Positions 10,416 to 33,487 of a stretch of 44,716 bases of DNA are shown here, in pieces. The first letter of the stretch is position 1; each line of letters begins with the position of its first letter. The stretch lies in IMG/VR virus record IMGVR_UViG_3300047329_000027, positions 1 through 44,716 of that record; one strand, 5' to 3'. The notes under the pieces were generated by a model. That model saw only the letters and a list, made by a program, of their open reading frames with translations. It was not told the DNA's origin and searched no databases. Origin of the DNA: a virus. The translations under genes were made by a program, and so were the position numbers.

Positions 10416-10417
10416 GT

Positions 10418-12335: not shown

Positions 12336-12356
12336 CGCGCGTTGGGTCGTCACCGC

Positions 12357-12676: not shown

Positions 12677-12678
12677 AC

Positions 12679-13293: not shown

Positions 13294-13294
13294 G

Positions 13295-17578: not shown

Positions 17579-17904
17579 AGGGCGGCCTCTAGGTGTTCGA
17601 CGATGGCGTCGATTTTTTCGGTTATGGCGGCGTCTTCCAGTTTTGCGGTGATGCGACCTAGGCCGGTCACGCAACCGGAAATCACACTGCGAAGCTGATC
17701 AAGTTCAGTTTCAATACGCTCAAGTTCGGACTGCGCCAGCACAAAGGCTGCGTCGTCCACTTCCTCCAGCGCATCAAGCGCCGGATCACCCCATTTCTTC
17801 GCCCAATACGCAAACTCGTCTAGCGATGTGCAGCGGTGCAATTCGTGCCGCGCCTGGATGACGTTTCCGTGGTCTGATAGATCGTTGAGTGTTGTGGTTA
17901 TCAC
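17575..17904 (-). CDS. Hypothetical acidic helical protein
   Basis: 109-aa ORF, overlapping-coupled to both neighbours. Confidence 0.5.
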   Translation of the reverse strand: MITTTLNDLSDHGNVIQARHELHRCTSLDEFAYWAKKWGDPALDALEEVDDAAFVLAQSELERIETELDQLRSVISGCVTGLGRITAKLEDAAITEKIDAIVEHLEAAL

Positions 17905-18101
17905 TAGTCCCTCCGCAGTCTGTAATCAGTGACGACGACTAACCCGAGCGCGTCCAAAATTTTCTGGCCAGGCTCACGATGACCGCGCAAAACGTCGCTC
18001 ACATACTGAGGCGACACGCCGATTTCTCGCGCCCAATCTTGCGCCAGTCCGACTTTCTTTATGCGCGCACGCATCAGGTTTCGCACCTGTTCGCTTGTCA
18101 T
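17904..18101 (-). CDS. XRE/Cro-like helix-turn-helix regulator
   Basis: 65 aa. GLAQDWAREIGVSPQYVSDVLRG is a typical HTH_3 core. It is the first gene after the divergent control region. Confidence 0.7.
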   Translation of the reverse strand: MTSEQVRNLMRARIKKVGLAQDWAREIGVSPQYVSDVLRGHREPGQKILDALGLVVVTDYRLRRD

Positions 18102-18142
18102 AGGCTACTCCGTTACGCGAACCCTATACGGCAAATTGTTTT

Positions 18143-18169
18143 AGTCAAGTCGCAGATTTGAGATTGACT
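18143..18169. promoter_or_regulatory. Divergent early control region: two TTGACT -35-like hexamers in inverted orientation, 15 bp apart
   Basis: agtcaa at 18143-18148 (TTGACT on the minus strand, then N16 and TAGGGT) and ttgact at 18164-18169 (then N17 and AAATGT). They lie in the 133-bp gap between the XRE gene and the first rightward gene. The -10 matches are weak. Confidence 0.35.
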
Positions 18170-18234
18170 CCATCCCCCATCGGCGCAAATGTGTCCTCAC
18201 AAACCGGCGACGGGAAACGCCGAGGGAGACTGAG

Positions 18235-18474
18235 ATGATCCTCACGATTGGCAAAGGCTACTATCCGGTTCGCGATTTCGCGGACGCCTCGGATATGTAT
18301 TCCACCGCCCGCACGAAGAAGTTCACGCGCACGGGGGGATCAAAGTTCCCCGAGGGCGTCATCACAGACGACGGCAAGCCGGTTGCTCGCGTAAGTCTGA
18401 ACGGCTGCGTATGGGCTCCGGGGCCGTGGGTTCCGGGTTTGGTTCCGATATATGATCCGAGGGTTTCGGCATGA
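18235..18474 (+). CDS. Hypothetical protein
   Basis: 79-aa ORF with the RBS gagggag 6 nt upstream. It is the first gene of the rightward early operon. Confidence 0.55.
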   Translation: MILTIGKGYYPVRDFADASDMYSTARTKKFTRTGGSKFPEGVITDDGKPVARVSLNGCVWAPGPWVPGLVPIYDPRVSA

Positions 18475-18767
18475 CCATCACGCCCCACATGGAAACCGTC
18501 CTCGCCAAGATCGACGCGGCGTTCAACCAGCCGCCGGTCGATAAGACCGAAGCGCTGCACAAGGCCATCGCGTTTTGGTCGCAGGACATCCGCCGCATCC
18601 GTGCTCAGATCGAAGCGCATACCGAATGGCGCGCGACCATGAACGCCAAGAACCCCGGATCGCTGGTGTTTTTCTCCGATGATCGCCCGGCCCTGCAACG
18701 CCAGATCGACCGGCTGAGCGCCCTGATCACAGCGGCGGAAAGCAAGTTGGCGGAGGGGGTGTCGTGA
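18471..18767 (+). CDS. Hypothetical protein
   Basis: 98-aa ORF with an ATGA overlap onto the previous gene. Confidence 0.55.
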   Translation: MTITPHMETVLAKIDAAFNQPPVDKTEALHKAIAFWSQDIRRIRAQIEAHTEWRATMNAKNPGSLVFFSDDRPALQRQIDRLSALITAAESKLAEGVS

Positions 18768-18853
18768 CCGCCCTCCGCATGATCCCGTCCCTGTTCGCGC
18801 TCGCCATCTGCGGCGTCGTGCTGCTGTTCGTCAGCTTTGGAGGTGGCCTGTGA
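18764..18853 (+). CDS. Micro-ORF (29 aa) encoding a single transmembrane helix
   Basis: My translation is V-TALRMIPSLFALAICGVVLLFVSFGGGL. There are GTGA overlaps at both ends. Confidence 0.3.
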   Translation: MTALRMIPSLFALAICGVVLLFVSFGGGL

Positions 18854-19065
18854 GCCAGACGATGCGCCGTGACTTGGCCGAACACGAAGATGGGTTGCGT
18901 GACCTGTTCAACGCCAGCACCCGTCTCGTTCAGGTCATCGATATGGTCGGCGTCTTGCGTCTTTCGACGGCGGTCGAGCTGGGCCAGATCAGTTGGTATC
19001 ACAAGTGCAACGATGCGGTCGCTTGGGTGAACGCCGAGTTGGACAAATGGGAGAGGAAGACGTGA
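18850..19065 (+). CDS. Hypothetical protein
   Basis: 71-aa ORF, overlap-coupled to its neighbours. Confidence 0.5.
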   Translation: MSQTMRRDLAEHEDGLRDLFNASTRLVQVIDMVGVLRLSTAVELGQISWYHKCNDAVAWVNAELDKWERKT

Positions 19066-19172
19066 AGCGAGCCACCGACTACGTAGCCCTGTCTCGGGTG
19101 AGCGACGGTCAAATCTGGGCTGCATCAGCTTCGATGATACAGAGGAGAGCCTGTGATGGCTGCAAAAACTAA
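19062..19172 (+). CDS. Micro-ORF (36 aa), hypothetical
   Basis: The GTG start overlaps the previous stop (GTGA). The ORF fills the gap before the pentapeptide gene and overlaps its start by 17 nt. Confidence 0.25.
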
Positions 19173-19947
19173 GACCGCGCCCGTCGAAGATACGACCGAA
19201 GACTACATCATCCGCAACAGCTTTTCCGGCGAGCCCCAAGTCACCGTCAAAATTCAGTCGGTGAACGAGCCTGAGGCTTTGAAGCTGGGCCGGGCGATCA
19301 TGGAAGCTATTAAGACCGGGGCCAATCTCGCCGGGGCCGATCTCGCCGGGGCCAATCTCGCCGGGGCCAATCTCGCCAGAGCCAATCTCGACGGGGCCAA
19401 TCTCGCCGGGGCCGATCTCGCCGGGGCCAATCTCGCCGGGGCCAATCTCGCCAGGGCCAATCTCGACGGGGCCGATCTCGACGGGGCCAATCTCGACGGG
19501 GCCAATCTCAAGGGGGCCAATCTCGCCGGGGCCAATCTCCACGGGGCCAATCTCGCCAGGGCCTATCTCGCCAGGGCCAATCTCGACGGGGCCTATCTCG
19601 CCAGGGCCAATCTCGACGGGGCCAATCTCGCCAGGGCCAATCTCGACGGGGCCAATCTCGCCAGGGCCAATCTCGACGGGGCCTATCTCGCCGGGGCCAA
19701 TCTCAAGGGGGCCAAAATTGGCGAGCGTACCGTTTTCACCCTCAAGGGCCGCGCGACGCGCTCTGACGGCTACGAGTTTCTACTGTTCAAAACTGAGGAC
19801 GGCGAAGTCATCCGCGCCGGGTGTCGCACCTTCACCCTGGCCGAGTTCCGCACCCATACCGACCGATACTGCAGCGCAGGCAAGAGCGCCGAGACGCTGC
19901 GCATCCTCAATTTCCTTGAAGCCCAAATGAACGGGGAGGTGTGGTGA
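19156..19947 (+). CDS. Pentapeptide-repeat protein (about 26 A(N/D/Y)L(A/D/K/H)(G/R) repeats) with unique N- and C-terminal domains
   Basis: ATG at 19156 lies behind the RBS agaggagag. The translation is ...[30 protein letters not shown].... The central residue is L and the i-2 residue is A, as in the canonical A(D/N)LXX pentapeptide family. Confidence 0.85.
19321..19710 (+). repeat. Tandem array of 26 in-phase 15-bp units (consensus GCCAATCTCGCCGGG)
   Basis: Every 60-nt sequence line from 19321 to 19680 starts in phase with gcc(a/t)atctc. There are four units per line plus two units in the next line, and a degenerate 27th unit at 19711-19725. Confidence 0.95.
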
Positions 19948-20105
19948 TGTACCGCTCAGAATACCGCCAATGGCGCGACGAGCTAGCCGGTGAGCGCCCG
20001 TCCCAGGGCTGGCGTCTCGCTGGCATGGCGATGCAATTCGCGTCCGTCGTGTCCGTGATTTGGGCCGCTTATGCGGCTGGGCGTCATTTTGGGTGGTGGG
20101 GATGA
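19947..20105 (+). CDS. Small ORF (52 aa) with a C-terminal hydrophobic helix
   Basis: My translation is [52 protein letters not shown]. Its ATG overlaps the TGA of the pentapeptide gene (TGATG). Confidence 0.4.
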   Translation: MYRSEYRQWRDELAGERPSQGWRLAGMAMQFASVVSVIWAAYAAGRHFGWWG

Positions 20106-20109
20106 ACAC

Positions 20110-20331
20110 ATGATCTTCATCATCATCTGGATAACCGCCGCTCTAATTATCACAATGGTTGATGCGGCCGTCCAAGACGAAGCAGGCCTTGGTCGCGCAT
20201 TGGTGTGGTTACTTTGGCCCTTTATGCTTCCAGCGGCCTTAGTCGTCCTGACGTTTGCAGCGGCGCAATGGGTGGGGCTCTATGCCCGGAAGATTTGGGC
20301 CGCCCTCGCAGCACAGGAGGGGCAGAGGTGA
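20110..20331 (+). CDS. Small membrane protein (two predicted TM helices)
   Basis: From the internal ATG at 20110: MIFIIIWITAALIITMV...LLWPFMLPAALVVLTFAAAQWV. Confidence 0.5.
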   Translation: MIFIIIWITAALIITMVDAAVQDEAGLGRALVWLLWPFMLPAALVVLTFAAAQWVGLYARKIWAALAAQEGQR

Positions 20332-20522
20332 GCCTTCAGAAGCTAAAGCCGTGCCCGAAGTGCGGCGGTCAGGTCAACGTCTGGACGTATGAAAGCGGCT
20401 GGCGTCGCGCTGAGTGTTACTCCTGCGACTACATCGCCAAGCCCGCTGAAAACCTTGTGCGCGCCTGCCGAAATCACAACGAGCGTGTTCGCGCAGCACA
20501 GGAGGGGAGCGAGAGATCATGA
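20328..20522 (+). CDS. Lar-like zinc-ribbon protein (restriction-alleviation family)
   Basis: From GTG at 20328 (GTGA overlap): LKPCPKCGGQ...AECYSCDY...ACRNHNER matches the Lar_restr_allev pattern (LKPCPFCGG ... C-x2-C ... WN-R) as I recall it. Confidence 0.55.
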   Translation: MSLQKLKPCPKCGGQVNVWTYESGWRRAECYSCDYIAKPAENLVRACRNHNERVRAAQEGSERS

Positions 20523-20842
20523 GCCGAGATCCGCGCATTGCAGAGGCCGCCGCAAAGGCCGCCGAGTATTACAAGAACCGCCAGCACGGCATGAGCGCGT
20601 TCTGCGCCAAAGCAGCTATTCGCGCCTATCTTGAAGCTGTAAGGCCAGAAATGGCGATGGTCCCCGTTGAGCCGACTGAGCAAATGCTTCGCGCTGGATT
20701 CGCAGCCATGAATGAGACACCGAGCAGCCAGTGGAAACGGATGAAGGCCGAAGGTGTCACGCCCCGGCGCATGTTCGACGTCAAGATGGCTCCGCGCTGG
20801 CGAGCGATGATCGACGCCGCCCTTTCAGAGCGGAGGGAGTAG
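20519..20842 (+). CDS. Hypothetical protein (PTExM...W..MIDAAL domain)
   Basis: 107-aa ORF with an ATGA overlap. Its C-terminal half resembles that of 25874..26275. Confidence 0.55.
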   Translation: MSRDPRIAEAAAKAAEYYKNRQHGMSAFCAKAAIRAYLEAVRPEMAMVPVEPTEQMLRAGFAAMNETPSSQWKRMKAEGVTPRRMFDVKMAPRWRAMIDAALSERRE

Positions 20843-21016
20843 ATGGGCCTATCCGCAGAACAAGCCGCCGCCGCAATCCGCGCCACCATCGCCCGCGTGC
20901 TCGGCATCCCGCCGTTATTCGTGAGCGAGGAAATATGCGAGCGCGAGGTTGAGCGCGAGATGCATCGAGGGCCTCGGCTCACCGTGGATGGCGTGCGTAT
21001 TCAGTCCACGGACTAG
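20843..21016 (+). CDS. Small ORF (57 aa), hypothetical
   Basis: My translation is MGLSAEQAAAAIRATIARVLGIPPLFVSEEICEREVEREMHRGPRLTVDGVRIQSTD. It starts 1 nt after the previous stop. Confidence 0.4.
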   Translation: MGLSAEQAAAAIRATIARVLGIPPLFVSEEICEREVEREMHRGPRLTVDGVRIQSTD

Positions 21017-21073
21017 ACCGACTTGTTGACGGGCGCTTGGAAAAGGGCGTTGATGATTTTGGAGGGAAATATC

Positions 21074-21754
21074 ATGGGCATAAAATATTACCGCGACCTG
21101 ATTCAGGGTTCGCCCGAATGGCTTGAGGCCAGACGCGGGCTTCTCGCCACGTCAGAGATGAAACTGATCCTGACGCCGACGCTCAAGATCGCCAGCAATG
21201 ATAAGGAGCGCGCGCACCTTTACGAACTGCTGGCCCAACGCATCAGCGGGTACGTTGAGCCGTCCTATATTGGCGACGACATGTTGCGCGGGATGGAAAG
21301 CGAAATCCTCGCGCGCCAACGCTATGCCGAACGGTACGCGCCGGTTGAGGAAATTGGGTTCATCACAAACGACAAATGGGGCTTCAAGATCGGCTACAGC
21401 CCGGATGGCTTGGTCGGGAAAACCGGCGCCATCGAGGTCAAAGGTCCGCGCCAGAAATCGCATGTTGAGACCATTCTAAACGGCGTTGTCCCGGTCGAGC
21501 ACGTCTTACAGATCCAGACCGGAATGATGGTCGCCGAATTGGAGTGGATCGACTTCATTTCTTACCATGGCGGTTTGCCCATGGTGACGATCAGGGCTTA
21601 TCCCGATCCGGTGATTCAGTCCGCCATTGTGGAAGCCGCAACGTCATTTGAGGCCAAATTGGGGGAGAAGCTGCGCGAGTGGAAAAAGATTTTGGCCGGC
21701 GAAGCGCGCCTCATTCCAACCGAACGCGTGATTGAACAGGAGATGTTCGTATGA
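21074..21754 (+). CDS. YqaJ-like (lambda Exo-type) recombination exonuclease
   Basis: ATG at 21074 behind the RBS ggaggg. The pattern GSPEWLEARRGLLATSEM...GYSPDGLV...GAIEVKGP follows the YqaJ PD-(D/E)XK pattern. Confidence 0.75.
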   Translation: MGIKYYRDLIQGSPEWLEARRGLLATSEMKLILTPTLKIASNDKERAHLYELLAQRISGYVEPSYIGDDMLRGMESEILARQRYAERYAPVEEIGFITNDKWGFKIGYSPDGLVGKTGAIEVKGPRQKSHVETILNGVVPVEHVLQIQTGMMVAELEWIDFISYHGGLPMVTIRAYPDPVIQSAIVEAATSFEAKLGEKLREWKKILAGEARLIPTERVIEQEMFV

Positions 21755-22551
21755 GCGAGCAACAATCACTGGTCGCTTTGGCCGATAACCCTGTCATAGT
21801 TTTGACGGACGCCGAGAAGTTCGACCGCTTCTATGAAGAAATGAAGCGCGAAAGCGCCAAAGCAATGAAGCCCCGCTTGCTCGATCTGTTCTGTTGCGCT
21901 GGCGGCGCGGGCGTCGGCTACGCCAGGGCCGGTTTCGAGGTCGTGGGCGTCGATATTGATCCGCAGCCCCGTTATCCGTTCACCTTCGTCCAAGCCGACG
22001 CGCTCGCCCTCGATCCCGAATGGGTGGCGTCGTTCGACGCAATCCACGCCTCGCCGCCGTGCCAATCCTATTCGGACCTAGCGAAGCGCAACAACAACGC
22101 GGACGCATGGCCTCGCCTCATTGATCCGACCCGCGATCTACTGGTCCGGTCAGGCCGCCCGTGGGTGATCGAGAATGTGGACGGCGCGCCGTTGCGCGAT
22201 CCCGTCATCCTTTGCGGAACGATGTTCCCCGGCTTGCGGGTGCTCCGCCACCGCCTGTTTGAGGCGAATTTCCCCATCATCGCACCGCCTCACGGCAAAC
22301 ACCCGAAAGTGCATACCTTCGACAGGCGAAAGTCTCACTTCGGCAAAACCGACGATATGCGCGATTTCGTCCAAGTCACGGGGGGCGGCAACTGCACGAT
22401 CGCCGCCGCGAAAGACGCGATGGGAATCGACTGGATGACCAAGAACGAGATGAACGAGTCCATCCCGCCCGCCTATACCCAACTGATCGGCGAACAGCTC
22501 TTGGCCCATATCAGCGCCGTGGATGAACCTCCGATGCGGCGCCGGGCCTGA
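21751..22551 (+). CDS. DNA (cytosine-5) methyltransferase, short type (MTase 3 of 4)
   Basis: Motif I LLDLFCCAGGAGVGY, motif IV HASPPCQSYS, motif VI WVIENV, and a C-terminal NESIPPAYTQLIG (motif X-like). Confidence 0.8.
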   Translation: MSEQQSLVALADNPVIVLTDAEKFDRFYEEMKRESAKAMKPRLLDLFCCAGGAGVGYARAGFEVVGVDIDPQPRYPFTFVQADALALDPEWVASFDAIHASPPCQSYSDLAKRNNNADAWPRLIDPTRDLLVRSGRPWVIENVDGAPLRDPVILCGTMFPGLRVLRHRLFEANFPIIAPPHGKHPKVHTFDRRKSHFGKTDDMRDFVQVTGGGNCTIAAAKDAMGIDWMTKNEMNESIPPAYTQLIGEQLLAHISAVDEPPMRRRA

Positions 22552-22552
22552 C

Positions 22553-22978
22553 GTGAGCGCCAAGGACCTCATTCGCCAGTTTTTCCTGGCGAACCTCGGA
22601 ACAGTCGTCAATTCGGGCCAGATTCGCGATGCGTCGGGCGGCATCACCGAATGGGCTAGACGCGTCAGAGAGCTTCGCGACGAAGAGGGATGGCCCATCC
22701 TCTCGCACAACGACTCCGCCGCATTGAAGCCCGGCGAATATCTCCTCAAGGAAACGCCGCCGCCGAAAAAGGACGTGTCGTTCTCGCGCGCCATATCGAC
22801 GAAACTGAGAGCCGAAGTCCTCGACCGTAACGGCTTCACCTGCCAAATGTGCGGCCTCACACCGGGGGATATTGACCCCTCGACCAACCGCAAGGTTCGC
22901 CTTCACCTGGGCCACATCACCGGGTCGATAGCCTCCTGCACGGCGCCGTGGGCCGCCGGATCACCTATGCGGAGCTGA
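22553..22978 (+). CDS. Winged-helix plus HNH endonuclease-like protein, truncated inside the HNH motif (probably inactive)
   Basis: From GTG at 22553. The N-terminus ITEWARRVRELRDEEGWPILSH is typical of HNH restriction-type enzymes next to Dcm genes. The C-terminus RNGFTCQMCG...VRLHLGHI breaks off where D-H-I-x-P...GG...N...C-x2-C is expected, and ends in unrelated sequence. Confidence 0.55.
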   Translation: MSAKDLIRQFFLANLGTVVNSGQIRDASGGITEWARRVRELRDEEGWPILSHNDSAALKPGEYLLKETPPPKKDVSFSRAISTKLRAEVLDRNGFTCQMCGLTPGDIDPSTNRKVRLHLGHITGSIASCTAPWAAGSPMRS

Positions 22979-22982
22979 CGGC

Positions 22983-24248
22983 ATGAGCGAGGGACTCGAA
23001 GAACTGACAGCCCTGGTCAAGGTCGTGATGTCATATAGGCCGGACACTAAAGCGGCTAAGCGACCAAGGATCGAGGCCATCGCACCGCCCAAACTGACCG
23101 CCATTGACCTGTTCTGCGGCGCTGGCGGATTGTCTGAGGGCTTCCGGCAGGCGGGCTTTCATGTGCTTGTCGGGCAGGACTATGACGCGGCAGCTGGCCG
23201 GACGTTCGGGGCCACGCACCCGGAGGCCACCTTCATCGGCGGTCGTATCCAAGACGTGACGCCCGCCCAAATCCTGAAAGATGCCGGTAAGCGTCGGGGC
23301 GAGATTGACGTGATCGTCGGCGGCCCCCCCTGTCAGGGCTATTCGGTCTACAATCATCAGCGCGGCGAGAGCGATCCGCGCGCGGGCCTGTTCCGTGAAT
23401 ATCTGCGGATCGTGGAGGGTATCTATCCCCGCTGGCTGGTCATGGAAAACGTGACGGGGATCACGTCCATCGCCGGCGGCGGCGTTGTCCGAGAGATTTA
23501 TGCGGGGATGGAAAGTCTCGGCTATCGCGTCGATATGCGCGTCCTCAAGGCGGAAGAATACGGCGTCCCCCAGGAGCGCCGCCGGGTCGTGTTTATCGCC
23601 ACGCGAGGGGACGCGCCCATCCTTTTCCCCGAACCTACCCACGGCCCCGGCCTTGCGCCTTTCGTGACTGTTTGGGATGCGATCTCTGACCTGCCGAAGA
23701 TTGAAAACGGGGCCAAGGCTGGCGTTCTGGCGTATGCCACCGAACCCCGGAACGATTACCAGCGCACCCTTCGCGGCAACGCCGTCGCCGTGACCAATCA
23801 CTCAGCGCCGCGCCTCGCCAAGATTAACGAGCAACGGATGCTGCACATCCCGCCGGGCGGATCGTGGCGGGATATTCCCTTCGAGCTTCTGCCCGCCGGG
23901 ATGAAGAAGGCCAAGCGAAGCGACCACACAAAGCGGTATGGTCGCCCTCGCAAGACGGACCTCGCCTGCACGATCCTGACCAAGTGCGACGTGCATTGGG
24001 GCGCTTATATCCATCCCGTTCAGAACCGGGCGTTGACCGTGCGCGAGGCCGCCCGCCTACAGTCGTTCCCTGACTCGTTCGCCTTCCAGGGCAGCGGCAC
24101 GGAACAATATGTTCAAGTCGGCAACGCCGTGCCGCCGCTCCTGGGCCGTCGCGTTGCGGAGGCCCTTCTAATCGCAGATAGCAAGGCAGAGGCTTCGCAC
24201 AAAAGCAGCCGCGCCGGAGAGCGATTGGAAATGGTCGTTGCCGTTTAA
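22983..24248 (+). CDS. DNA (cytosine-5) methyltransferase, full-length type II (MTase 4 of 4; partner of the NotI-like endonuclease)
   Basis: 421 aa with all canonical motifs: I DLFCGAGGLSEGF, IV GGPPCQGYS, VI MENV, VIII QERRRV, IX REAARLQSFPD, X GNAVPPLL. Confidence 0.9.
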   Translation: MSEGLEELTALVKVVMSYRPDTKAAKRPRIEAIAPPKLTAIDLFCGAGGLSEGFRQAGFHVLVGQDYDAAAGRTFGATHPEATFIGGRIQDVTPAQILKDAGKRRGEIDVIVGGPPCQGYSVYNHQRGESDPRAGLFREYLRIVEGIYPRWLVMENVTGITSIAGGGVVREIYAGMESLGYRVDMRVLKAEEYGVPQERRRVVFIATRGDAPILFPEPTHGPGLAPFVTVWDAISDLPKIENGAKAGVLAYATEPRNDYQRTLRGNAVAVTNHSAPRLAKINEQRMLHIPPGGSWRDIPFELLPAGMKKAKRSDHTKRYGRPRKTDLACTILTKCDVHWGAYIHPVQNRALTVREAARLQSFPDSFAFQGSGTEQYVQVGNAVPPLLGRRVAEALLIADSKAEASHKSSRAGERLEMVVAV

Positions 24249-25116
24249 CCCCGAGACCATCATCGGAGAGGTTTTGGGCGAACGGGCGCTCAAGGGCGCG
24301 GACCCCGCGTCTAAGGCGTTCATGTGCCCCTACATTGATGCGACATGCCCGAAGCGCAGCACGAACTTGCCAGGCATTGAGTCCTATCCGGTTTGTTCGA
24401 TTTGGAAGGGCAACCCGATCGCTCCCGCACCCGGCGTCGATCTTATCTGTGTCTGCCCGAAGCGGTTTCACGCCATCGACTTCCTTGCCGACGTGATCGC
24501 GTATTGTTGGCCGGGGGAGCCTCCCGCCCATCCGCGCATCGCGCCTGAAGTTAAGATGGAGGGTTTCGGCAACGTCGATTTTGTGATCGCCGACGTGGGC
24601 GAAGACGGCCAGATCGGGCAATTTCTGTCTGTTGAATTGCAGGCCATCGACATCACCGGATCGGTCTTTCCGGCCTATCAGGCGTTGCGGGCCGGGGCCG
24701 ACCTTGAACGCAGACCGACCTACGGCCTGAATTGGGATAACGTCTATAAGCGCTACATCACCCAGCTCATCCGCAAGGGCTACTTTCACCATCACTGGAA
24801 AACCAAAATCGTCGCGGTGATCCAGGAGCAGATTTATCGGAACATTGTAGAGCGCGCGGCCTTCATGCGGACGCCGGACGTGAAGGGCGCCGACGTGAAT
24901 ATCATCTTCATGACCTACCGCTTCGACCATGATCCTGACCGGCCCGGCCAATTCAGGCCGGCCCTAACCACCGTCGAAGGCACCAGCCACGCCAGCCTTT
25001 CGCAAGCCATCCTCTACAAAGAAGCTCCTACCCGCGACGCCTTCTGCGCTCGCATTTCCGCCTCGATGAAGCGGGCGGACGCGGGGGCGATCACCCTAGC
25101 CAAATTAGGACTTTAG
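24238..25116 (+). CDS. Type II restriction endonuclease, NotI family (candidate)
   Basis: The TTG start overlaps the methylase stop by 11 nt. The Cys cluster CPYIDATCPK...PVCSIW...CVCPKRF, the core NVDFVIADVG...SVELQAIDITGS and NWDNVYKRYITQ parallel the Fe-Cys4 plus D...E-x-Q layout I recall for R.NotI. Confidence 0.6.
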   Translation: MPFNPETIIGEVLGERALKGADPASKAFMCPYIDATCPKRSTNLPGIESYPVCSIWKGNPIAPAPGVDLICVCPKRFHAIDFLADVIAYCWPGEPPAHPRIAPEVKMEGFGNVDFVIADVGEDGQIGQFLSVELQAIDITGSVFPAYQALRAGADLERRPTYGLNWDNVYKRYITQLIRKGYFHHHWKTKIVAVIQEQIYRNIVERAAFMRTPDVKGADVNIIFMTYRFDHDPDRPGQFRPALTTVEGTSHASLSQAILYKEAPTRDAFCARISASMKRADAGAITLAKLGL

Positions 25117-25199
25117 GGAGTTAACGCGATAATTCCCAAAAAGATCGTCCTTGCCATCGTTGCGGGTGAAATTCCCGCCGTCACTCTGAGGTTTTGAAC

Positions 25200-25877
25200 A
25201 TGAACGACATGAGCCCCGTAATCGTCGCCAAGAGCGACCAAATGAACGCCGATGACCTCATGGGCTCGCCGCGAACCATCCGCATCACCAAGGTTGATAT
25301 TACCGCGGGCAATGAACAACCCGTCAACGTCTATTTCGAAGGCGACGACGGCAAACCCTGGCGCCCGTGCAAGTCGATGTCGCGCGTCATGGTCGCTCTG
25401 TGGGGGCCGGATGCGAAACAGTACGCCGGCAAGAGCTTGACGCTGTTCCGTGATCCGAAGGTGAAATGGGGCGGCCTAGAGGTTGGCGGTATCCGTATCA
25501 GCCACGCCTCGCACATTGATGGTGATACGGTTGTGATTGTTAACTCGTCAAAGGGGAAAAAGGCGGCTTACAAGGTGGCGCCGCTCAAGGCTCCGGTTGC
25601 GAAATTGGTTCAGCAGCCAGCACCCGCACCCGAACCCGATCTAGACGCGCCCATAGGCGCGCCGTCCGACATCCCCGGCGACCTCGCCGACTTCGCCGAC
25701 GCCCTAGAACTTGAAATCGAGCACGTCACGGACGGCAAGGCGTTTGGCGCCAAGTTCAACGCCATGATGCGCGATGATCCGTTGTGGAAGGCGCTGAGGA
25801 ACGACCACGGCGAAGCTGGCCAGCGTCGGGCGGCGGATTTGAAGGCGAAGGCTACAGCGAAGATTAGGGGGGCGTGA
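25200..25877 (+). CDS. Hypothetical conserved phage protein
   Basis: ATG at 25200 behind gagg. The N-domain NADDLMGSPRTIRITKV...KPWRPCKSMSRVMVALWG...GKSLTLFRDPKVKWGGLEVGGIRI resembles an uncharacterised family I have seen in many phages. Confidence 0.55.
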   Translation: MNDMSPVIVAKSDQMNADDLMGSPRTIRITKVDITAGNEQPVNVYFEGDDGKPWRPCKSMSRVMVALWGPDAKQYAGKSLTLFRDPKVKWGGLEVGGIRISHASHIDGDTVVIVNSSKGKKAAYKVAPLKAPVAKLVQQPAPAPEPDLDAPIGAPSDIPGDLADFADALELEIEHVTDGKAFGAKFNAMMRDDPLWKALRNDHGEAGQRRAADLKAKATAKIRGA

Positions 25878-26275
25878 TGAGCGAGATGGTTGAACGAGTG
25901 GCGCTAGCTTATGAGACCGAGCGCAAACTTTGGACCCAGAAATTCACCGCAATCGCGAATGGTATTCAGGTCGAAATGTGTCGAGATGGGCGCGCTATTG
26001 GATCGCCGTGGAGTTTGCATGTTTTTGAAGTCAGCGGTTGGCGTGCGTGGCAATCTTTAAGGGACGAGGCTTCAGCCCGCGCCGCCATCGCTGCCATGCG
26101 CGAGCCAACTGAGGAAATGGCGCGCGCCATGGCCGAAGCGTGCATGACGCGCGAGGAGGCGCGCAATAAGCATCTCATGGCGATGGTGGACTATAAAACC
26201 ATTGCGGCATCTTGGCGGGGCGGAATAGACGCCGCCCTTAAAGCCGCCCCATCAACGCCAGCACCACGAGAATAA
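25874..26275 (+). CDS. Hypothetical protein (PTEEM...W..IDAAL domain)
   Basis: 133-aa ORF with an ATGA overlap. It is the last gene of the rightward operon. Confidence 0.5.
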   Translation: MMSEMVERVALAYETERKLWTQKFTAIANGIQVEMCRDGRAIGSPWSLHVFEVSGWRAWQSLRDEASARAAIAAMREPTEEMARAMAEACMTREEARNKHLMAMVDYKTIAASWRGGIDAALKAAPSTPAPRE

Positions 26276-26396
26276 CCAGCAACAGCCCCGCAAACCCAAA
26301 CCCGCCATAGCGCCCATTTACGCCCCCAACGCCGCTGAACCCAAGGCCTCCGCCAAACAGGATCAGCACTAGGATTATGATCAGGATGAGCGACAT
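26238..26396 (-). CDS. DUF3309-like small membrane protein (52 aa)
   Basis: My translation is MSLILIIILVLILFGGGLGFSGVGGVNGRYGGFGFAGLLLVILVVLALMGRL. It has two hydrophobic helices around a Gly-rich loop and ends in GRL, like DUF3309 proteins. It overlaps the 3' end of 25874..26275 convergently by 38 nt. Confidence 0.5.
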   Translation of the reverse strand: MSLILIIILVLILFGGGLGFSGVGGVNGRYGGFGFAGLLLVILVVLALMGRL

Positions 26397-26440
26397 GGCG
26401 GGTGTCCGTTTTCACGGTAACGCCTGTCAGCGGTTACGGT

Positions 26441-26764
26441 TCACCGCAGATCACAAGCCAGCCATCCCCCCTCACGCTTAGCCGTCATCACAGCGTCTGT
26501 TAATCGGCCGTGGGCGGCGTCCTCCGCGTTCCACCTGTCAAACAGCGCGCACATTTCCCGCATGGCCCAACGCGCGTTTTCTGACGATCCATGCTTGCCG
26601 CGCCGCCATACGAGGGCGAGCGGCATGGCGACTTTGCCGCGCGTGGCCATGAGGTTGTGAAATTTGGTTCGGCAAGCGGAGGAGCAAAACAGGCCCGTGT
26701 TGCGCTTGCCGGGCGTGGGGAAGCCGCATTCGGCGCAGGGTTTAGGTGTGGTCACAACGCCCAT
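26441..26764 (-). CDS. Zinc-ribbon protein of unknown function
   Basis: MGVVTTPKPCAECGFPTPGKRNTGLFCSSACRTKFHN contains a CxxC...CxxxC motif. An alternative start lies at 26803. Confidence 0.5.
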   Translation of the reverse strand: MGVVTTPKPCAECGFPTPGKRNTGLFCSSACRTKFHNLMATRGKVAMPLALVWRRGKHGSSENARWAMREMCALFDRWNAEDAAHGRLTDAVMTAKREGGWLACDLR

Positions 26765-26815
26765 CTCATGTCTCTCCCAAGCGGGCTTCCCATCCCGCAA
26801 CATAGCGCAGACACG

Positions 26816-26851
26816 AAAAAGCCGCCGTAGCGCAAACTACGGCGGCTTCTT
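26816..26851 (-). terminator. Intrinsic terminator at the end of the late (structural/lysis) operon, possibly bidirectional
   Basis: The 10-bp GC stem gccgccgtag (26821-26830) pairs with ctacggcggc (26837-26846), with a 6-nt loop. The minus-strand RNA continues with UUUUUCG and the plus-strand RNA with UUCUU. Confidence 0.75.
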
Positions 26852-26873
26852 GAGTGGTCGGCCTGATAGCCCG

Positions 26874-27068
26874 TTATTGCGTCTGCGCCGCCGCGTTCAA
26901 ATCCGTGATGGCCTGCGCCTCGTCCGCCGCTTCCTGAGACGTCGCCGTCGCGAGTGCGGCGTCAACGGTTGCCTGATCGCTAGCCGACAGGGCCGCCTTG
27001 GCGTTGTTGATCACGGTGAGGATCGAACTTACGCCCTCCACGAGCGCAAGGATTGATGCGAGGTCCAT
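26874..27068 (-). CDS. Hypothetical Ala-rich helical protein
   Basis: 64-aa ORF, the last gene before the terminator. Confidence 0.45.
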   Translation of the reverse strand: MDLASILALVEGVSSILTVINNAKAALSASDQATVDAALATATSQEAADEAQAITDLNAAAQTQ

Positions 27069-27403
27069 TACTGTCCAGCCTCCGTCATGATCGTGGCGAC
27101 AAGGGCAGCGATGGCCGTGACGCGCGCCGTAAGCGTGGTCTGGTCAAGCGCCGCCTCGGCCGCCTTGGCGTCGTTGAGGTAGCTTTGAGCTGTGGCGAGA
27201 TCGGCCGCCGCCTTGGCCGCCGCCGAACCCTTGAGGTAGCCGGATTTGGCGGCGGTATCCAGAGCCACGGCGGCGCCGTCCACGGACGCGACGGCGACGA
27301 GCAGTGTCTTGTGCGCCGTCAGGGTTGGCGTTGCGGTCAGGCTGGATACGGTGGAGCAACTGGCCAGCGCCAAGGCGGCGGCGGCGAGAACGAGCGCCTT
27401 CAC
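27068..27403 (-). CDS. Lipoprotein (candidate outer-membrane spanin component or exclusion lipoprotein)
   Basis: MKALVLAAAALALASC has the lipobox L-A-S-C. The mature part is Ala-rich and helical. It lies downstream of the endolysin. Confidence 0.6.
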   Translation of the reverse strand: MKALVLAAAALALASCSTVSSLTATPTLTAHKTLLVAVASVDGAAVALDTAAKSGYLKGSAAAKAAADLATAQSYLNDAKAAEAALDQTTLTARVTAIAALVATIMTEAGQ

Positions 27404-27711
27404 GACTTGGCCGCCGCTGCTGCCGTGTCAGCCGCCGCAATTCGCGCCGCCTGAGCCTTGGTCAGTTCGTCCTGAAGTTTGGCGATGATGCCGTCCCATG
27501 CGTCCACGGCCATTTGCGCGGCGACGGGTCCGAGCGTCGGCACGTTGACTTGAGCCGCGATCATGGGCGCGTCAGTGGCGATGGCCTTGTCGCCGATGCC
27601 CTTGAGATCTTGAAGCGCATTGGAGAAGTCGGCGCTGAGTTCGGCGGGAATCACGGAGAAAAAGCCCTCCAGTTTGGTGCCTACGTTGCTGATGTCGTCT
27701 GCGATGGTCAT
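27400..27711 (-). CDS. Hypothetical helical protein in the lysis cassette
   Basis: From the internal ATG at 27711 (MTIADDISNVG...) behind the RBS ggaaggga. The longer ORF would overlap the endolysin. Confidence 0.45.
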   Translation of the reverse strand: MTIADDISNVGTKLEGFFSVIPAELSADFSNALQDLKGIGDKAIATDAPMIAAQVNVPTLGPVAAQMAVDAWDGIIAKLQDELTKAQAARIAAADTAAAAAKS

Positions 27712-27724
27712 GGTATTTCCCTTC

Positions 27725-28204
27725 CTAGTCTGGTTGAAGTGGATACGCGGCACAAAGGGGATCTGTGCCGTTCCATAGCGCAATTTCGGCAGCCCGCCTA
27801 TTAACGAGCCCCTGAACCACTTGGCCGCCCGCGTAAACAAATCTCGTAAGCTCGGCGGGAACGTCCACATAGTCGCCCTTTCGGAGGTCGGCCCAAACCG
27901 CCCATGACGCGCCAGCGCCTTCATTGAAACAAAACGAAACAAGGGCTGAAAACTGATAATCGTTCAGCTTGGCTACGGCGTCAGGACCGATAGCCCATGT
28001 CAGCCGCTGCACCGCCATCTGAAGATCGGCCGACAATGCGGCGTCGATCTGCGCCTGTGTCCACTCCACGCCCCCGCGCACGTCCGACCCCGTATGCCCT
28101 ACGCCCACGGTAAGGACCCCTGCACTGTCGCGGTACGGCATCGACTGTTCGCCTTCCTCGCGCTCGAGGAATTTGATCAGGATAGTGGGGATGAAGCGCG
28201 TCAC
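27725..28204 (-). CDS. Endolysin, GH24 (T4/lambda-type) lysozyme
   Basis: The signature LEREEGEQSMPYRDSAGVLTVGVGHTG (E-x8-D-x5-T), followed by QFSALVSFCFNEG. The start is GTG at 28204. Confidence 0.85.
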   Translation of the reverse strand: MTRFIPTILIKFLEREEGEQSMPYRDSAGVLTVGVGHTGSDVRGGVEWTQAQIDAALSADLQMAVQRLTWAIGPDAVAKLNDYQFSALVSFCFNEGAGASWAVWADLRKGDYVDVPAELTRFVYAGGQVVQGLVNRRAAEIALWNGTDPLCAAYPLQPD

Positions 28205-28299
28205 TTCGGCCCACCCTTAAGCGCCGCCAACGCCGCACATGCCCCGAATGCCATCGCCAACACAACAATCGCAGCAATCTCGGGGCCGGTGTAGATCAA
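28201..28299 (-). CDS. Micro-ORF (32 aa), single TM helix
   Basis: My translation is (TTG)IYTGPEIAAIVVLAMAFGACAALAALKGGPK. There are overlap signals at both ends. The non-ATG start makes it tentative. Confidence 0.25.
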   Translation of the reverse strand: MIYTGPEIAAIVVLAMAFGACAALAALKGGPK

Positions 28300-28430
28300 A
28301 ACGGCCTCCGCTTGCGTGGAGGAATTGGGTTTCGGGCTTGCTCACGTCTAACCGTAATCTCTTCAATTACCTCCGCGATGAACACGGCGGCGATAAAGAA
28401 TCCGATCAGGGTGAGGGCGAGTAGCATCAT
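28296..28430 (-). CDS. Micro-ORF (44 aa), TM helix plus basic tail (holin/antiholin-like accessory)
   Basis: My translation is MMLLALTLIGFFIAAVFIAEVIEEITVRREQARNPIPPRKRRPF. It has an ATGA overlap with the holin-like gene. Confidence 0.4.
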   Translation of the reverse strand: MMLLALTLIGFFIAAVFIAEVIEEITVRREQARNPIPPRKRRPF

Positions 28431-28711
28431 TTTGGCGCCGCAAGCCAACCTGGCTTTGTTTCAACGGGCGTTGTCGGAAGGGCGGCGTGGGCCAGTTTAA
28501 AGGTTTTTAGCTGGCCAATTACGATGACGATCAGCCCCGCTATGGGACCAGCCATGCCTAACAGGGCGCCGAACTTACCCGCCACGCCGGAATAGCCAAG
28601 CGCAGACGCCACGCCAGCCGCGACGAGAAGAATTTGGCGAACAAGGGATTCGACGTTTTCTTGCGCCGGATTGGCGTTGACGATGACGGGCGTTGGGGTC
28701 GGGTCACTCAT
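28427..28711 (-). CDS. Putative holin (two TM helices)
   Basis: 94 aa from ATG at 28711. The hydrophobic segments are ILLVAAGVASALGY and GPIAGLIVIVIG. It lies upstream of the endolysin. Confidence 0.5.
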   Translation of the reverse strand: MSDPTPTPVIVNANPAQENVESLVRQILLVAAGVASALGYSGVAGKFGALLGMAGPIAGLIVIVIGQLKTFKLAHAALPTTPVETKPGWLAAPK

Positions 28712-28778
28712 CAATGTGCGCCTTTCGGTTCCAAGCTACCCCATGCGGCAGATTAGCGCAACGCTACTTGGATGCCGA

Positions 28779-29219
28779 TCAATCCTGGTTATCGTTTTGC
28801 TCGCTCAAAATAATCATGGGCTCTTCGGGATCGTCTTCGCTTCGCCGAGGCTGCGGGACGTTGATACCGCGCATTTTAAGCTGACGCTGCAGAGCTTCAA
28901 TGGTTGAATACATATTTGCCATCTCGCCCTTGCGCTGGCTTTCCTCCCTGGCGTGCTTGACTTTGAGATGGTCCAACTCGCCGCGAAGCTCCTTGTTCGC
29001 TGCGCGCGCCTCTTCCAACTGCGCCGACAGGGACGCGGTGATGCGTGTAAACCCGTCGTTCATCGCGTTTTGAAACGCGGCCTTGCCGAGCGTGCGGTTG
29101 GCGACCCAGACCGCCACGCCGCCGATGAACGCTCCAATCGCGCTGAGCCCTGCAGCGATAACGCCGCTGCCTGGCTCGGCGGGCAATCCTCCTGACGGTG
29201 CTGTCATCGCGGGGTTCAT
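28779..29219 (-). CDS. Type II membrane protein with coiled coil (i-spanin-like architecture)
   Basis: An N-terminal TM segment (VIAAGLSAIGAFIGGVAVWVA) is followed by a charged helix (QLEEARAANKELRGELDHLKVKHAREESQRK). Confidence 0.4.
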   Translation of the reverse strand: MNPAMTAPSGGLPAEPGSGVIAAGLSAIGAFIGGVAVWVANRTLGKAAFQNAMNDGFTRITASLSAQLEEARAANKELRGELDHLKVKHAREESQRKGEMANMYSTIEALQRQLKMRGINVPQPRRSEDDPEEPMIILSEQNDNQD

Positions 29220-29231
29220 TCTTTGGCTCGC

Positions 29232-29729
29232 TTAGAGCGGTCTTCGACGCGCCGCGCGCGCCACCGCGCGGTGATTATGAACACGATTGCGTTGATGAAA
29301 ACGCAGATTTTGGATAGGAAAAGCAAGTGCACGGGCTCTCGGTCCCCCATACGCAATTGCCAACTGGATTGCATATGTCACGTCCAGTTGCAGTGCCAAA
29401 TCGTATCTTCGCGCCAGCGTTGCCGGCCCCTCCTCGTAATTTTGATGGATCGCGAGCTGAGCCATGAACACGAGAGACATCAGGATGGACCAGCTGCGAC
29501 CGCTGCACCCATACAGCATTATGAAGATGCAGCTCTCAATCGTATCCATGATGATGCCGAGCGCGCGAAATTGATCATCGCCGCTGACAATCATCGTCGC
29601 CGTCATGCACGTTATCCAGCCGGTCGCCAAGATCCACGCGCCGAACTTTGCGGCGGGATCGCGGTCATAGGCGGACGTTGCGACGAAAGCCGTTGCGAAG
29701 CCGAACATGACAGGCGATAAGTTTTTCAC
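29232..29729 (-). CDS. Polytopic membrane protein of unknown function (lower-GC insert)
   Basis: 165 aa with 4-5 hydrophobic segments. The DNA is visibly more AT-rich than its neighbours. Confidence 0.5.
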   Translation of the reverse strand: MKNLSPVMFGFATAFVATSAYDRDPAAKFGAWILATGWITCMTATMIVSGDDQFRALGIIMDTIESCIFIMLYGCSGRSWSILMSLVFMAQLAIHQNYEEGPATLARRYDLALQLDVTYAIQLAIAYGGPRARALAFPIQNLRFHQRNRVHNHRAVARAARRRPL

Positions 29730-29989
29730 GGCTTGCCGGTTCCACCGTCAAGCGGATGCGGAAGAGGCTGAGCCCCGAGGCTTTTACCGGTTTCCCCAAG
29801 ATGCGAGCCCAGCGTGTCGGCCGCGTGGGCAAGATCGGCGTGAAGCTGCACAATCGCGGCCTTGAGCACAATCCAAGCTGCTTGAGCGCCCGGACTAATA
29901 TCGGCCTCAAGCTGCGCCGCCGCATTCTCAACGGCTTGGAGCGCCGCGCGGATTGTGGATATTTCAGCTTTTGCGTCGTCTATGAGCAT
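29726..29989 (-). CDS. Hypothetical helical protein
   Basis: 87-aa ORF with an overlapping stop/start onto the next gene. Confidence 0.45.
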   Translation of the reverse strand: MLIDDAKAEISTIRAALQAVENAAAQLEADISPGAQAAWIVLKAAIVQLHADLAHAADTLGSHLGETGKSLGAQPLPHPLDGGTGKP

Positions 29990-30013
29990 TTCGTGGGTTT
30001 CTCCGCATCGCTG

Positions 30014-31780
30014 TCAGCGCTTCAAGACCCGCACAATGATAGTGTGCGCGGGGATTGTCACGCCCGAGGTGGTGTAGTTGCCGTACGTGACTTCGACATA
30101 GCCGTTCGTGTTGATGAACCCCTGAACGGTGACGCCCGGCATGCCCACGGCGCCGCCCGCTGGAGCCGCCGTCGTATAGCCGGCAAATGCGTCAACGCCG
30201 GCCACAGCGCCCGGGCAGCCGACAGCAAACGATAGCGCGCCGTTTGCTGAAATCGTCTGGCCTGTTACCGAATTTCCGCCTTCGATCTGATCAAGACGAA
30301 GCCCGAACCGGCGAATTCCTAGGTTGTCATAGACCCCGTTCGCGACCGATGCGGCGTCAATGGTCGCGCCGTCCGCATCTACATTCGGCAAATCTCCCGC
30401 AGCAATAATGGCAAGTGCGCCGCTAGAGCCGGGGAAGCTCGTATCCATGCAGACCAATTTCTTGATTTTCCACTTGCCTATGCCGCTGCCGAAGTCGAGG
30501 GAATAGTTTGTTCCGCCGGAAATGAATATGCCAATCGCCCCCTTCGACGATGGGCCAAAATACGCCACATAGTTCGTGCAAATTCCTGCGACGAGATCAA
30601 TATCAAACAGCGCATTTGTGGCGGTATGTTCTGCCACGATTGCTAAGCCCACGGCGCCGGTGTAGAACTCACCCGTCAGAGACATGGCTGACGAGTTGTT
30701 TGAGAACAGGCCATACGTGGAATAATTGTTTGCGACGTCCGCGACAGAGCCGCTACCTGCCGCGCCCCAACTGCAATCCGCGCCGCAGTTTTTCAGGCGC
30801 GCCGAAGTCTGTGGGCCCGAGGCATAAAGCTCCACAGAGGTCTGCCAGTTGTAGGTAAAGCAGTCCGACAGAAGCGCCCCATCGACGTGACCCTCAATGA
30901 GTATTCCGATACCCGAGCGATAGGTCACGTCGCGGGCATTGGCCGTGAGCGGGAGCGCTGTACCCGACGAGTTGATGCGCGCGTCAGGATCGGACGGGTT
31001 TGCGCCGATATGGCCGGTGATGTACTGCCAACCATGGTGAAAATTGAACTCCGAAGTATCGTCCACGCCGGTAATCACCGGGCCGTTTGTGCAGTCGTAA
31101 AGGATGCCGTCCACTTTGACACACGCAAGCAGCTGACCCGTTCCGAAGCGATAAGTCGGGGCCACTTGGTAGGCATAGGCGAACCCTATGATCAGACAGT
31201 CCTTTAGCCGCGCCTCGTTGTCGGTCAGGAAAAACGCCGAACACGAATAGGTGTTGAACGCCCGGATTTGCGCGAGGATATTCGCGATTGTCATGGACAA
31301 TTGCTGCGTTTGGCCGGACGTGTAAGAGCATGTCTGGGCGACGGGATAGGTGATGTCGCTGTTCAGTACCGTGACGCCCTCCCACTTAGCGCCCATGCCG
31401 ATATTGATGCCGCATCCTCCATTTCCGATGGCCGTGCCGGAAATGCCGATCGATGTGCCGTGCGCCTTGTAATTCAGATCAAAGTCGTTCTCGCCAGGGC
31501 TGGCAAGTGCGCCGACCACGCGCACAAAAGGCGGCGTGACGAACGGAGGCGTAAGGGTGAAATAGCCAGGCGGGATATAGACCACACCGCCATAGGTGAG
31601 CGACGCGCAAGCGTTCGTCAGCGCAGTCGTGATATTCATCCCCGCCGAATATGTGCCGTTGTAAAAGTCCAGCACGTTGACGGTATCGTTTAGCTTGGCG
31701 AGTGCGCCGCGCGCATAGGCTCCCGTCCCCGTTGCGAGGTAGTTCATATTTGAAAAATCGGCGTTGCCAACGAGACCCAT
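30014..31780 (-). CDS. Tailspike with pectate-lyase-like beta-helix (candidate polysaccharide depolymerase)
   Basis: 588 aa. The N-terminus VNVLDFYNGTYSAG...TALTNACASLTYGGVVYIPPGYF follows the usual V-x-V-x-D-F-G...G-G-x-V-Y-x-P-x-G entry of beta-helix tailspikes. The protein is Gly/Asn/Thr-rich throughout. Confidence 0.6.
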   Translation of the reverse strand: MGLVGNADFSNMNYLATGTGAYARGALAKLNDTVNVLDFYNGTYSAGMNITTALTNACASLTYGGVVYIPPGYFTLTPPFVTPPFVRVVGALASPGENDFDLNYKAHGTSIGISGTAIGNGGCGINIGMGAKWEGVTVLNSDITYPVAQTCSYTSGQTQQLSMTIANILAQIRAFNTYSCSAFFLTDNEARLKDCLIIGFAYAYQVAPTYRFGTGQLLACVKVDGILYDCTNGPVITGVDDTSEFNFHHGWQYITGHIGANPSDPDARINSSGTALPLTANARDVTYRSGIGILIEGHVDGALLSDCFTYNWQTSVELYASGPQTSARLKNCGADCSWGAAGSGSVADVANNYSTYGLFSNNSSAMSLTGEFYTGAVGLAIVAEHTATNALFDIDLVAGICTNYVAYFGPSSKGAIGIFISGGTNYSLDFGSGIGKWKIKKLVCMDTSFPGSSGALAIIAAGDLPNVDADGATIDAASVANGVYDNLGIRRFGLRLDQIEGGNSVTGQTISANGALSFAVGCPGAVAGVDAFAGYTTAAPAGGAVGMPGVTVQGFINTNGYVEVTYGNYTTSGVTIPAHTIIVRVLKR

Positions 31781-32223
31781 TACGGCGTCACCCCCTGATA
31801 GATATTCCCGAGCGCGCGAAGGTTGCCAGCCGTGTCAACGGACATGACGACGGTTGATCCTGAGACGAGATAGGCCTTGCCGGCGTTTGCGTACCATCCC
31901 CAGACTACAGAGGACGCCCGGTCGGTCCAGCTTACGATATTTGTCGCGCCTGACGTCAGGACTTCCGTGAACGGGACACCAGACAGGGCCGCCGCAAGCG
32001 CGTCAAGTTGAGGTGTTGAGACGCCCGCGAAATTGACGTTGGCCAGAAGATTGTCAGCAACGCCGTTCGCAATTGCGACGGCTGCAACCGCAATCGCCTG
32101 TGAACTACCCGAGGGGTAATTCGCCCCGTTAACCGCTGGCGCCAGAAACGTGAAATTCGCATCCAGCCATGCGGCCGGAATTGTCTCGCCTCCGTAATTT
32201 GCGAATGTGTAGGGAAGCGCCAT
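31780..32223 (-). CDS. Tail fibre-associated protein (adaptor or short fibre)
   Basis: 147 aa. The N-terminus YTFANYGGETIPAAWLDANFTFL resembles tail-fibre N-termini. It shares start/stop overlaps with the flanking fibre genes. Confidence 0.45.
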   Translation of the reverse strand: MALPYTFANYGGETIPAAWLDANFTFLAPAVNGANYPSGSSQAIAVAAVAIANGVADNLLANVNFAGVSTPQLDALAAALSGVPFTEVLTSGATNIVSWTDRASSVVWGWYANAGKAYLVSGSTVVMSVDTAGNLRALGNIYQGVTP

Positions 32224-33485: not shown

Positions 33486-33487
33486 GA

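Follow-up and report, generated by a model that had tools for sequence, protein, structure and literature searches.

A NotI-family restriction-modification cassette in a tailed-phage genome, apparently delivered by an IS1595-family transposon next to a resident methylase-endonuclease module

The viral genome IMGVR_UViG_3300047329_000027 (IMG/VR; positions 1 to 44,716 of the record, 44,716 nucleotides (nt), referred to here as the window) encodes what is, by its sequence, an intact two-gene type II restriction-modification (R-M) cassette: a C5 cytosine DNA methyltransferase (M) followed by a NotI-family restriction endonuclease (R) with a predicted Cys4 metal site and a D...E-x-Q active site. 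The components of the cassette are all of known kinds. We consider it likely, taking the reading as a whole, that this intact cassette was delivered by a transposon, displaced a resident HNH endonuclease and is probably used by the phage during infection. A preliminary description made from the sequence alone had proposed a C5 methylase paired with a NotI-family endonuclease on this phage, and both halves of that proposal are borne out, M by family hidden Markov models (HMMs) and R by conservation of its Cys4 and D/E/Q residues. The transposon origin, the truncated HNH endonuclease gene upstream and three further methylase genes had no place in that description and are added here. The two genes of the cassette are:

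22983..24248 (+): M, C5 cytosine DNA methyltransferase, 421 amino acids (aa), ATG start
24238..25116 (+): R, predicted NotI-family PD-(D/E)XK type II restriction endonuclease, 292 aa, TTG start

Both open reading frames (ORFs) lie at the coordinates first proposed, on the + strand, with an 11-nt overlap between the R start codon (TTG, 24238-24240) and the M stop codon (TAA, 24246-24248). Direct reading of the M translation recovers C5 motifs I, IV, VI, VIII, IX and X, including every string quoted in the preliminary description (DLFCGAGG, PPCQGYS, ENV, QERRRV, RLQSFPD and GNAVPP). M matches Pfam DNA_methylase (E=7e-65, residues 39-395, profile positions 2-322 of 324), TIGR00675 dcm (E=3e-57) and PADLOC MTase_II (E=2e-124), and shares 87% aa identity with the methylase of a bacterial transposon (locus L001), at a ratio of non-synonymous to synonymous substitution (dN/dS) of 0.09; R has the same ratio (0.09) relative to its nearest relatives (L001). 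Both proteins are full length when set beside hundreds of homologues. Disruption of the R gene in most related genomes had been named beforehand as a result that would count against an intact pair; most of the 634 R homologues are full length, and R itself retains every family-invariant residue. The M-R order with overlapping ends recurs in bacterial chromosomes and islands, and an adjacent, co-oriented M-R pair is conserved in loci L001-L003, L026-L030 and L033. L029, a second phage contig, has an intact pair of the same family adjoining terminase and portal genes. Exact look-ups returned no record for the window M or for a Rhizobium homologue.

Assignment of R to the NotI family, as proposed earlier, is upheld by a Pfam HMM, a profile-to-PDB match and a predicted fold. 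R matches Pfam NotI (PF12183) at E=2.2e-10, scoring 40.7 bits against a gathering cut-off of 22 over profile positions 11-230 of 238, and also matches PADLOC REase_II; no NCBIfam model matched R. A single-sequence phmmer search of R against PDB gave no match, and a profile built from 25 close R homologues did not reach NotI in the same database. A profile of 40 diverse family members, out of 1.84 billion representatives searched (302 clusters at E<=0.001), matches PDB NotI 3bvq at E=7e-20 across NotI residues 14-332, and was the only one of the R profiles tried that reached NotI. R residues C30, C37, C53 and C73 align with NotI C42, C55, C65 and C81, and all four are invariant in the 40 diverse homologues; D114, E133 and Q135 align with NotI D160, E182 and Q184, with E133 invariant and D114 and Q135 at least 90% conserved. 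A profile comparison, as suggested in the preliminary description, finds both the NotI relationship and the D/E/Q equivalents. NotI itself is reported to have iron in its Cys4 motif and a glutamine where a lysine is usual in the active site (PMC4081073). An AlphaFold2 (AF2) model of R based on the 40-sequence alignment has a predicted local distance difference test (pLDDT) score of 92.6 and its top Foldseek match is the NotI-DNA complex 3c25_A (E=7.8e-10, probability 1.00, template modelling (TM) score 0.66); Foldseek gave no NotI match for a first AF2 model (pLDDT 84.9).

The R strings quoted initially (CPY..CPK, PVCS, CVCPKRF, FVIADVG, SVELQAIDITGS and NWDNVYKRY) are all present, with one correction to spacing, which is CPY-x4-CPK (C30...C37) and not x5. 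The D...E-x-Q site is likewise present, but the catalytic Asp, as placed by the NotI alignment, is D114 of GNVDF and not D119 of FVIADVG. R shares with R.NotI of Nocardia otitidiscaviarum (PDB 3BVQ, 3C25) the Pfam family, the fold, four N-terminal Cys, the Asp...Glu-x-Gln arrangement and the N-x5-KR and Q-x3-K motifs. It differs in being only ~21% identical and ~90 residues shorter (292 aa versus 383 aa), with several NotI insertions absent. By alignment and modelled structure, R is a genuine but distant NotI-family member. Because of the ~21% identity and the missing insertions, the specificity of NotI is not transferable to R, and a NotI-like 8-bp specificity would be a guess; nothing usable was found in the literature on recognition specificity of this subfamily.

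The sequences around M and R suggest how the cassette arrived. The 2.2-kb cassette runs from 22921 to 25138, and its DNA is ~81% identical to bacterial loci L001-L003 over window positions 22918-25138 (start 22918-22921), the match ending exactly at 25138. L001-L003 sit on bacterial islands and carry the nearest M and R relatives (85-87% aa identity). In L001, perfect 25-nt inverted repeats (7766-7790 and 10877-10901) bracket a 305-aa IS1595-type transposase, M and R, and the right repeat begins at the R stop codon. Two parts of such an element are recognizable in the window:

22918..22983 (+): IS1595-family transposase remnant, last 22 codons (tblastn, L001 transposase residues 284-305, 91% aa identity)
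25114..25138 (+): right terminal inverted repeat of an IS1595-family transposon, TAGGGAGTTAACGCGATAATTCCCA, with 23/25 bases as in the L001 repeats

The repeat at 25114-25138 begins with the R stop codon, and its end is the right boundary of the cassette; none of 100 shuffles matched it (0/100). The transposase remnant lies directly upstream of M, in a frame differing from that of the ORF that covers it. No left repeat was found in the window, and no other part of a transposase adjoins the cassette. A complete 305-aa transposase (Pfam Zn_ribbon_IS1595 and DDE_Tnp_IS1595) is present in L001, L002 and L005, and L001 and L002 have both terminal repeats as perfect 25-nt copies, compared with the right one only in the window. 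Because only the last 22 transposase codons remain, the window holds a transposon remnant, not a live element. We infer from these comparisons that the cassette arrived on an IS1595-family transposon with the order inverted repeat (IR), transposase (tnp), M, R, IR. We note that the terminal repeat (both L001 copies and window 25114-25138) contains a perfect TATAAT, with TTGAC on the other strand, and could by its sequence carry an outward- or inward-facing promoter element.

Immediately upstream of the cassette lie the apparent remains of an older R-M module:

21751..22551 (+): short C5 methylase of 266 aa (Pfam DNA_methylase, E=4.5e-07), paired with the truncated HNH gene that follows
22523..22978 (+): truncated resident HNH type II restriction endonuclease, codons 1-132 plus 19 out-of-frame codons from the transposase remnant

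Homologues of 22523-22978 in 18 viral loci match only its residues ~10-132. Full-length HNH relatives are 188-202 aa long, continue with KDKSLGG...NLR.LCSTCNQGAK, give a Pfam HNH match and always follow a C5 methylase, often with Vsr next. In the truncated protein, the GHI of the HNH motif is the last part retained; transposon-derived sequence takes over at exactly this point, and the protein is predicted from this to be inactive. PADLOC assigns the full-length relatives to the type II endonuclease class, and its REase_II model PDLC03503 matches the window ORF over profile positions 23-152 of 218. Neither an HNH 3' remnant nor vsr was found elsewhere in the window. This 151-aa ORF was also considered as a relative of the IS1595 transposase and rejected, as there is no protein relationship. 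The 21751-22551 methylase is intact and 74-78% identical (aa) to methylases preceding full-length HNH endonucleases in L004, L006 and L007; in L004, a Vsr is also found downstream of the HNH module. By sequence it would effectively be a solitary methylase, without a working partner. The nearest known counterparts are the methylase-HNH(-Vsr) modules of phage contigs L004-L019: the window methylase and HNH codons 1-132 are 67-78% identical to L004, L006 and L007, but the window HNH protein is without its catalytic C-terminal half and the window has no vsr gene. A module of the L004-L019 type appears, on sequence comparison, to be the resident one that the cassette displaced.

The site as a whole is variable. 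In the related phages L022-L025, a homologue of window gene 25194-25877 (phrog_11517) lies within 350-800 bp downstream of a YqaJ exonuclease gene, and a 96-aa protein or a 235-aa exonuclease-like protein is encoded between the two. Because this slot is filled differently in related phages, the 3.4 kb from 21751 to 25194 are accessory DNA in a variable position.

As judged from these sequences, one insertion and one deletion would be the simplest history. An IS1595-family transposon (IR-tnp-M-R-IR) would have inserted downstream of the resident methylase-HNH endonuclease module, with M-R as cargo. A single later deletion, with end points at HNH codon 132 and transposase codon 283, would have taken out the catalytic half of the resident endonuclease, any downstream vsr, the left repeat and the bulk of the transposase, fixing the new cassette in place and leaving the old methylase stranded without a working partner.

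The replicon that holds these genes is a tailed phage. A 127-bp direct repeat at the ends of the window (1-127 and 44590-44716) indicates a complete 44.6-kb genome, circularly closed or terminally redundant. The window encodes a large terminase, portal, head protease, tail sheath, baseplate and tape measure, together with a primase, helicase and sliding-clamp-like protein for replication. The gene across the junction (44507..964, -) encodes a 348-aa product that is probably the major capsid protein, judged only from a weak Pfam match. Megablast of window positions 20000-28000 against GenBank phages gave no match. A GcrA-like homologue (12679-13497, -) suggests an alphaproteobacterial host.

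Within this genome, M and R belong to a packed + strand block (21023-26275) that includes a YqaJ exonuclease gene. Because packing is tight and no convincing internal promoter or terminator interrupts it, M and R would be co-transcribed with the recombination genes, including that for YqaJ, during infection. M would be expressed first, with R translationally coupled to it; M would methylate the phage's own sites on packaged and replicating DNA, and R would cut DNA that is unmethylated, probably that of the host chromosome and of co-infecting phages.

Counts of candidate sites agree with a need for self-protection. The preliminary description had found at least two GCGGCCGC sites by eye; there are exactly two (13957 and 36991) versus ~3.3 expected, so the site is not avoided, and neither is CGGCCG (46 observed versus 53 expected). 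By comparison, 6-bp palindromes as a class are strongly avoided in the window, with a median observed/expected ratio of 0.41 versus 1.0 for all 6-mers; GGATCC and TCCGGA do not occur at all, and there is one GTCGAC versus 16 expected. The exceptions that are not avoided (GCCGGC, GGCGCC, CGGCCG, GCGCGC, CGCGCG, TGATCA and TCGCGA) may be sites covered by the phage's own methylases. CGGCCG was not inferred to be the R site, as other all-G/C palindromes behave alike and the cassette is possibly a recent arrival. To judge from the sequence, the phage probably depends on M to protect whichever GC-rich site is cut by R.

Several points weigh against a delivered, resident-displacing and functional cassette. 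No convincing promoter-like or terminator-like site was found around or inside the cassette block, so that expression timing is taken from packing alone. Intact ORFs and purifying selection relative to bacterial relatives are no proof of activity in the phage, and most of the divergence behind the dN/dS of 0.09 versus L001 may have accumulated in bacteria. R can be lost, as in at least one related lineage (L031-L033), where the endonuclease is frameshifted. An 8-bp target duplication was not seen around the complete L001 element (flanks AGTTTCTT versus TTCCAATC), and the window is without a left repeat, so that insertion plus deletion is the most economical history rather than a demonstrated one. 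The window is, moreover, a metagenomic contig. In L031, L032 and L033, the match to the NotI-family gene is split into two pieces that lie in different frames (one for residues 1-214, the other for 211-283), beside an intact methylase, and the gene looks from this pattern to be frameshifted and decaying.

These frameshifted copies, and the loss already suffered by the neighbouring resident endonuclease, are what one would expect if the cassette were a recent selfish hitch-hiker of which only M is useful, as an anti-restriction methylase, with R silent or decaying. Such an account would also suit a genome that already has four methylase genes, and the general pattern that solitary methylases are common and complete systems rare in phages (PMC4176335). 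We regard it as doubtful all the same: R is full length, keeps all family-invariant residues at a dN/dS of 0.09 and preserves the 11-nt M/R overlap of its relatives, and the L029 phage contig has an intact pair of the same family. An assembly chimera of a phage and a bacterial mobile element, which the metagenomic source and the bacterial-island location of the closest cassette relatives might bring to mind, is highly improbable. It would need two precise junctions 2.2 kb apart within one co-oriented phage operon, and across the left one a phage-type gene continues in frame; the cassette is not the same as the bacterial copies but 81% identical to them; the 127-bp repeat closes the contig on itself; and IS1595 elements with the same repeat occur in 57 other viral stretches.

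The phage might instead be temperate, or persist as a carrier or an episome, through unrecognized functions, the R-M system then mainly defending the lysogen against other phages and punishing loss of the element (post-segregational killing), a role that has been proposed for type II systems on prophages. R-M density is ~8-fold higher in prophages than in virion-derived phage genomes (PMC4176335), and the window has a small (65-aa) XRE-type helix-turn-helix (HTH) gene (17904-18101, -) at the junction of divergent gene blocks, the GcrA-like regulator and many unannotated small ORFs. The XRE-type HTH and GcrA-like genes are the only recognized regulators, and the former is the only repressor-like gene. 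Among the long ORFs (~300 aa or more) there is no integrase, recombinase or partition gene; these ORFs have structural, replication or methylase assignments or give no integrase match, and no uncalled gap exceeds ~0.9 kb, too little to hide such a gene. The window has no tRNA genes. A terminase search of 185,579 genomes returned one relative only, at 57%, giving no evidence of integrated close relatives; because of this single hit, lifestyle is not inferable from integrated relatives. The earlier statement that no lysogeny module is visible holds within annotation limits, and a temperate or episomal lifestyle seems unlikely to us. Use of the cassette during infection by a phage that lacks recognizable lysogeny genes is the reading we carry forward.

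An intact endonuclease partner is unusual on a phage, as the preliminary description had remarked. R-M systems were found in 9 of 831 phage genomes in one survey (PMC4176335). Among 50,697 GenBank phage records there was a single, distant NotI-family match, in Pseudomonas phage vB_Pae_U8, and the R subfamily was found at only two loci in IMG/VR, L029 in a true phage context and L030 in an integrative mobilisable element. vB_Pae_U8 (PP003920.1; L093, record 38443-40568) shares a NotI-family-like ORF, a 300-aa 'hypothetical protein', directly after a C5 methylase, and differs in its low similarity (30% identity over 52% of the query), its different host group and the lack of annotation of this ORF as an endonuclease. 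The methylase and the 300-aa ORF are probably an unannotated R-M pair, judging from their sequences and arrangement. Much closer are Alphaproteobacteria pairs of Dcm and 'NotI family restriction endonuclease' genes (for example in Rhizobium ruizarguesonis and a Parvibaculum metagenome-assembled genome), which, with L001-L003, share 66-89% aa identity for R, 76-87% for M, the gene order and the overlapping junction. These pairs are in chromosomes or integrative islands, with the transposase complete in L001/L002, whereas in the window the replicon is a tailed phage and the transposase and left repeat are gone.

R-M genes with terminal inverted repeats and a transposase, and substitution of one R-M system for another at a locus, have been described in bacterial chromosomes (Furuta, Abe and Kobayashi 2010, PMC2853133). 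Insertion sequences of the IS1595 family are also known to carry passenger genes (Siguier et al. 2009, as cited in PMC2853133). The units of Furuta, Abe and Kobayashi 2010 (PMC2853133) differ in being bacterial; here, the target is a phage and the resident endonuclease gene is decapitated. Adjacent methylase and endonuclease genes are also found in the chloroviruses (PBCV-1 and relatives), lytic viruses for which degradation of unmethylated host DNA, with the viral genome itself protected, has been proposed (PMC7019647). By analogy, these are the nearest precedent for R-M in a lytic virus (PMC7019647), although they differ in having a eukaryotic host, 2-4 bp sites, endonucleases packaged in the virion and unrelated enzyme families.

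The same kind of transposon is associated with other R-M cargo. The IS1595 terminal repeat pattern is present in 57 IMG/VR stretches, with a transposase of 60-80% identity beside about half of the matches. Cargo of this repeat and transposase includes a methylase and HNH endonuclease in L005/L068, a methylase and 160-aa endonuclease in L046, L067 and L057/L069 (once with Vsr), and lone C5 or N6/N4 methylases in L039, L073 and L051. Several of these carrier loci retain only the last 37-52 transposase codons, much as the window does. A tentative extension would make this IS1595 group (repeat AGGGAGTYAA-N4-ATAATTCCCA, 305-aa transposase) a general vehicle for interchangeable type II R-M and methylase cargo between bacteria and phages, one that repeatedly knocks out resident phage endonucleases and so generates solitary methylases, with virulent phages then using the surviving endonuclease against host DNA or rival phages; this is possible, if rather less than probable. 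In L020/L021 (the same contigs as L057/L069), at ~5600-9300, only a fragment of an HNH endonuclease is found (residues 29-70), adjoining an IS1595-type cassette of methylase, 160-aa endonuclease, terminal repeat and the last 37 codons of the transposase. This layout may reflect a separate event in which one R-M cassette disrupted another.

The value of the locus lies in its being a clear record of an R-M system entering a phage and replacing another. The arrival of R-M systems in phages is seldom visible, and here both the probable insertion and the probable fixing deletion can be read from the sequence. The locus is also a direct case of a complete system reduced in place to a solitary methylase, a route that the survey of 831 phage genomes judged uncommon (PMC4176335). 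Should R prove active, it would add a phage-borne enzyme, perhaps of new specificity, to a family known for a rare cutter, and the phage, without recognizable lysogeny genes, would be a tractable one for asking whether host DNA breakdown or competitor exclusion is served.

In total, four DNA methyltransferase genes are present in the window. The two outside the R-M block, and two further genes of possible relevance to restriction, are:

10894-12147 (+): 417-aa protein with a C5-methylase N-terminal region
14050-15084 (-): N6/N4-type methylase (Pfam N6_N4_Mtase)
19153-19947 (+): pentapeptide-repeat protein (Pfam, E=1e-38)
20205-20522 (+): weak Lar-like restriction-alleviation match

The pentapeptide-repeat and Lar-like genes lie just upstream of the recombination/R-M block, and the pentapeptide-repeat protein could be a DNA mimic. 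Far from the cassette, between the terminase and primase genes, a stretch at 8435-8538 (-) inside ORF 8433-8810 resembles the zinc-ribbon region (residues 47-82) of an IS1595-type transposase (tblastn E=1e-5, 76% DNA identity to L001).

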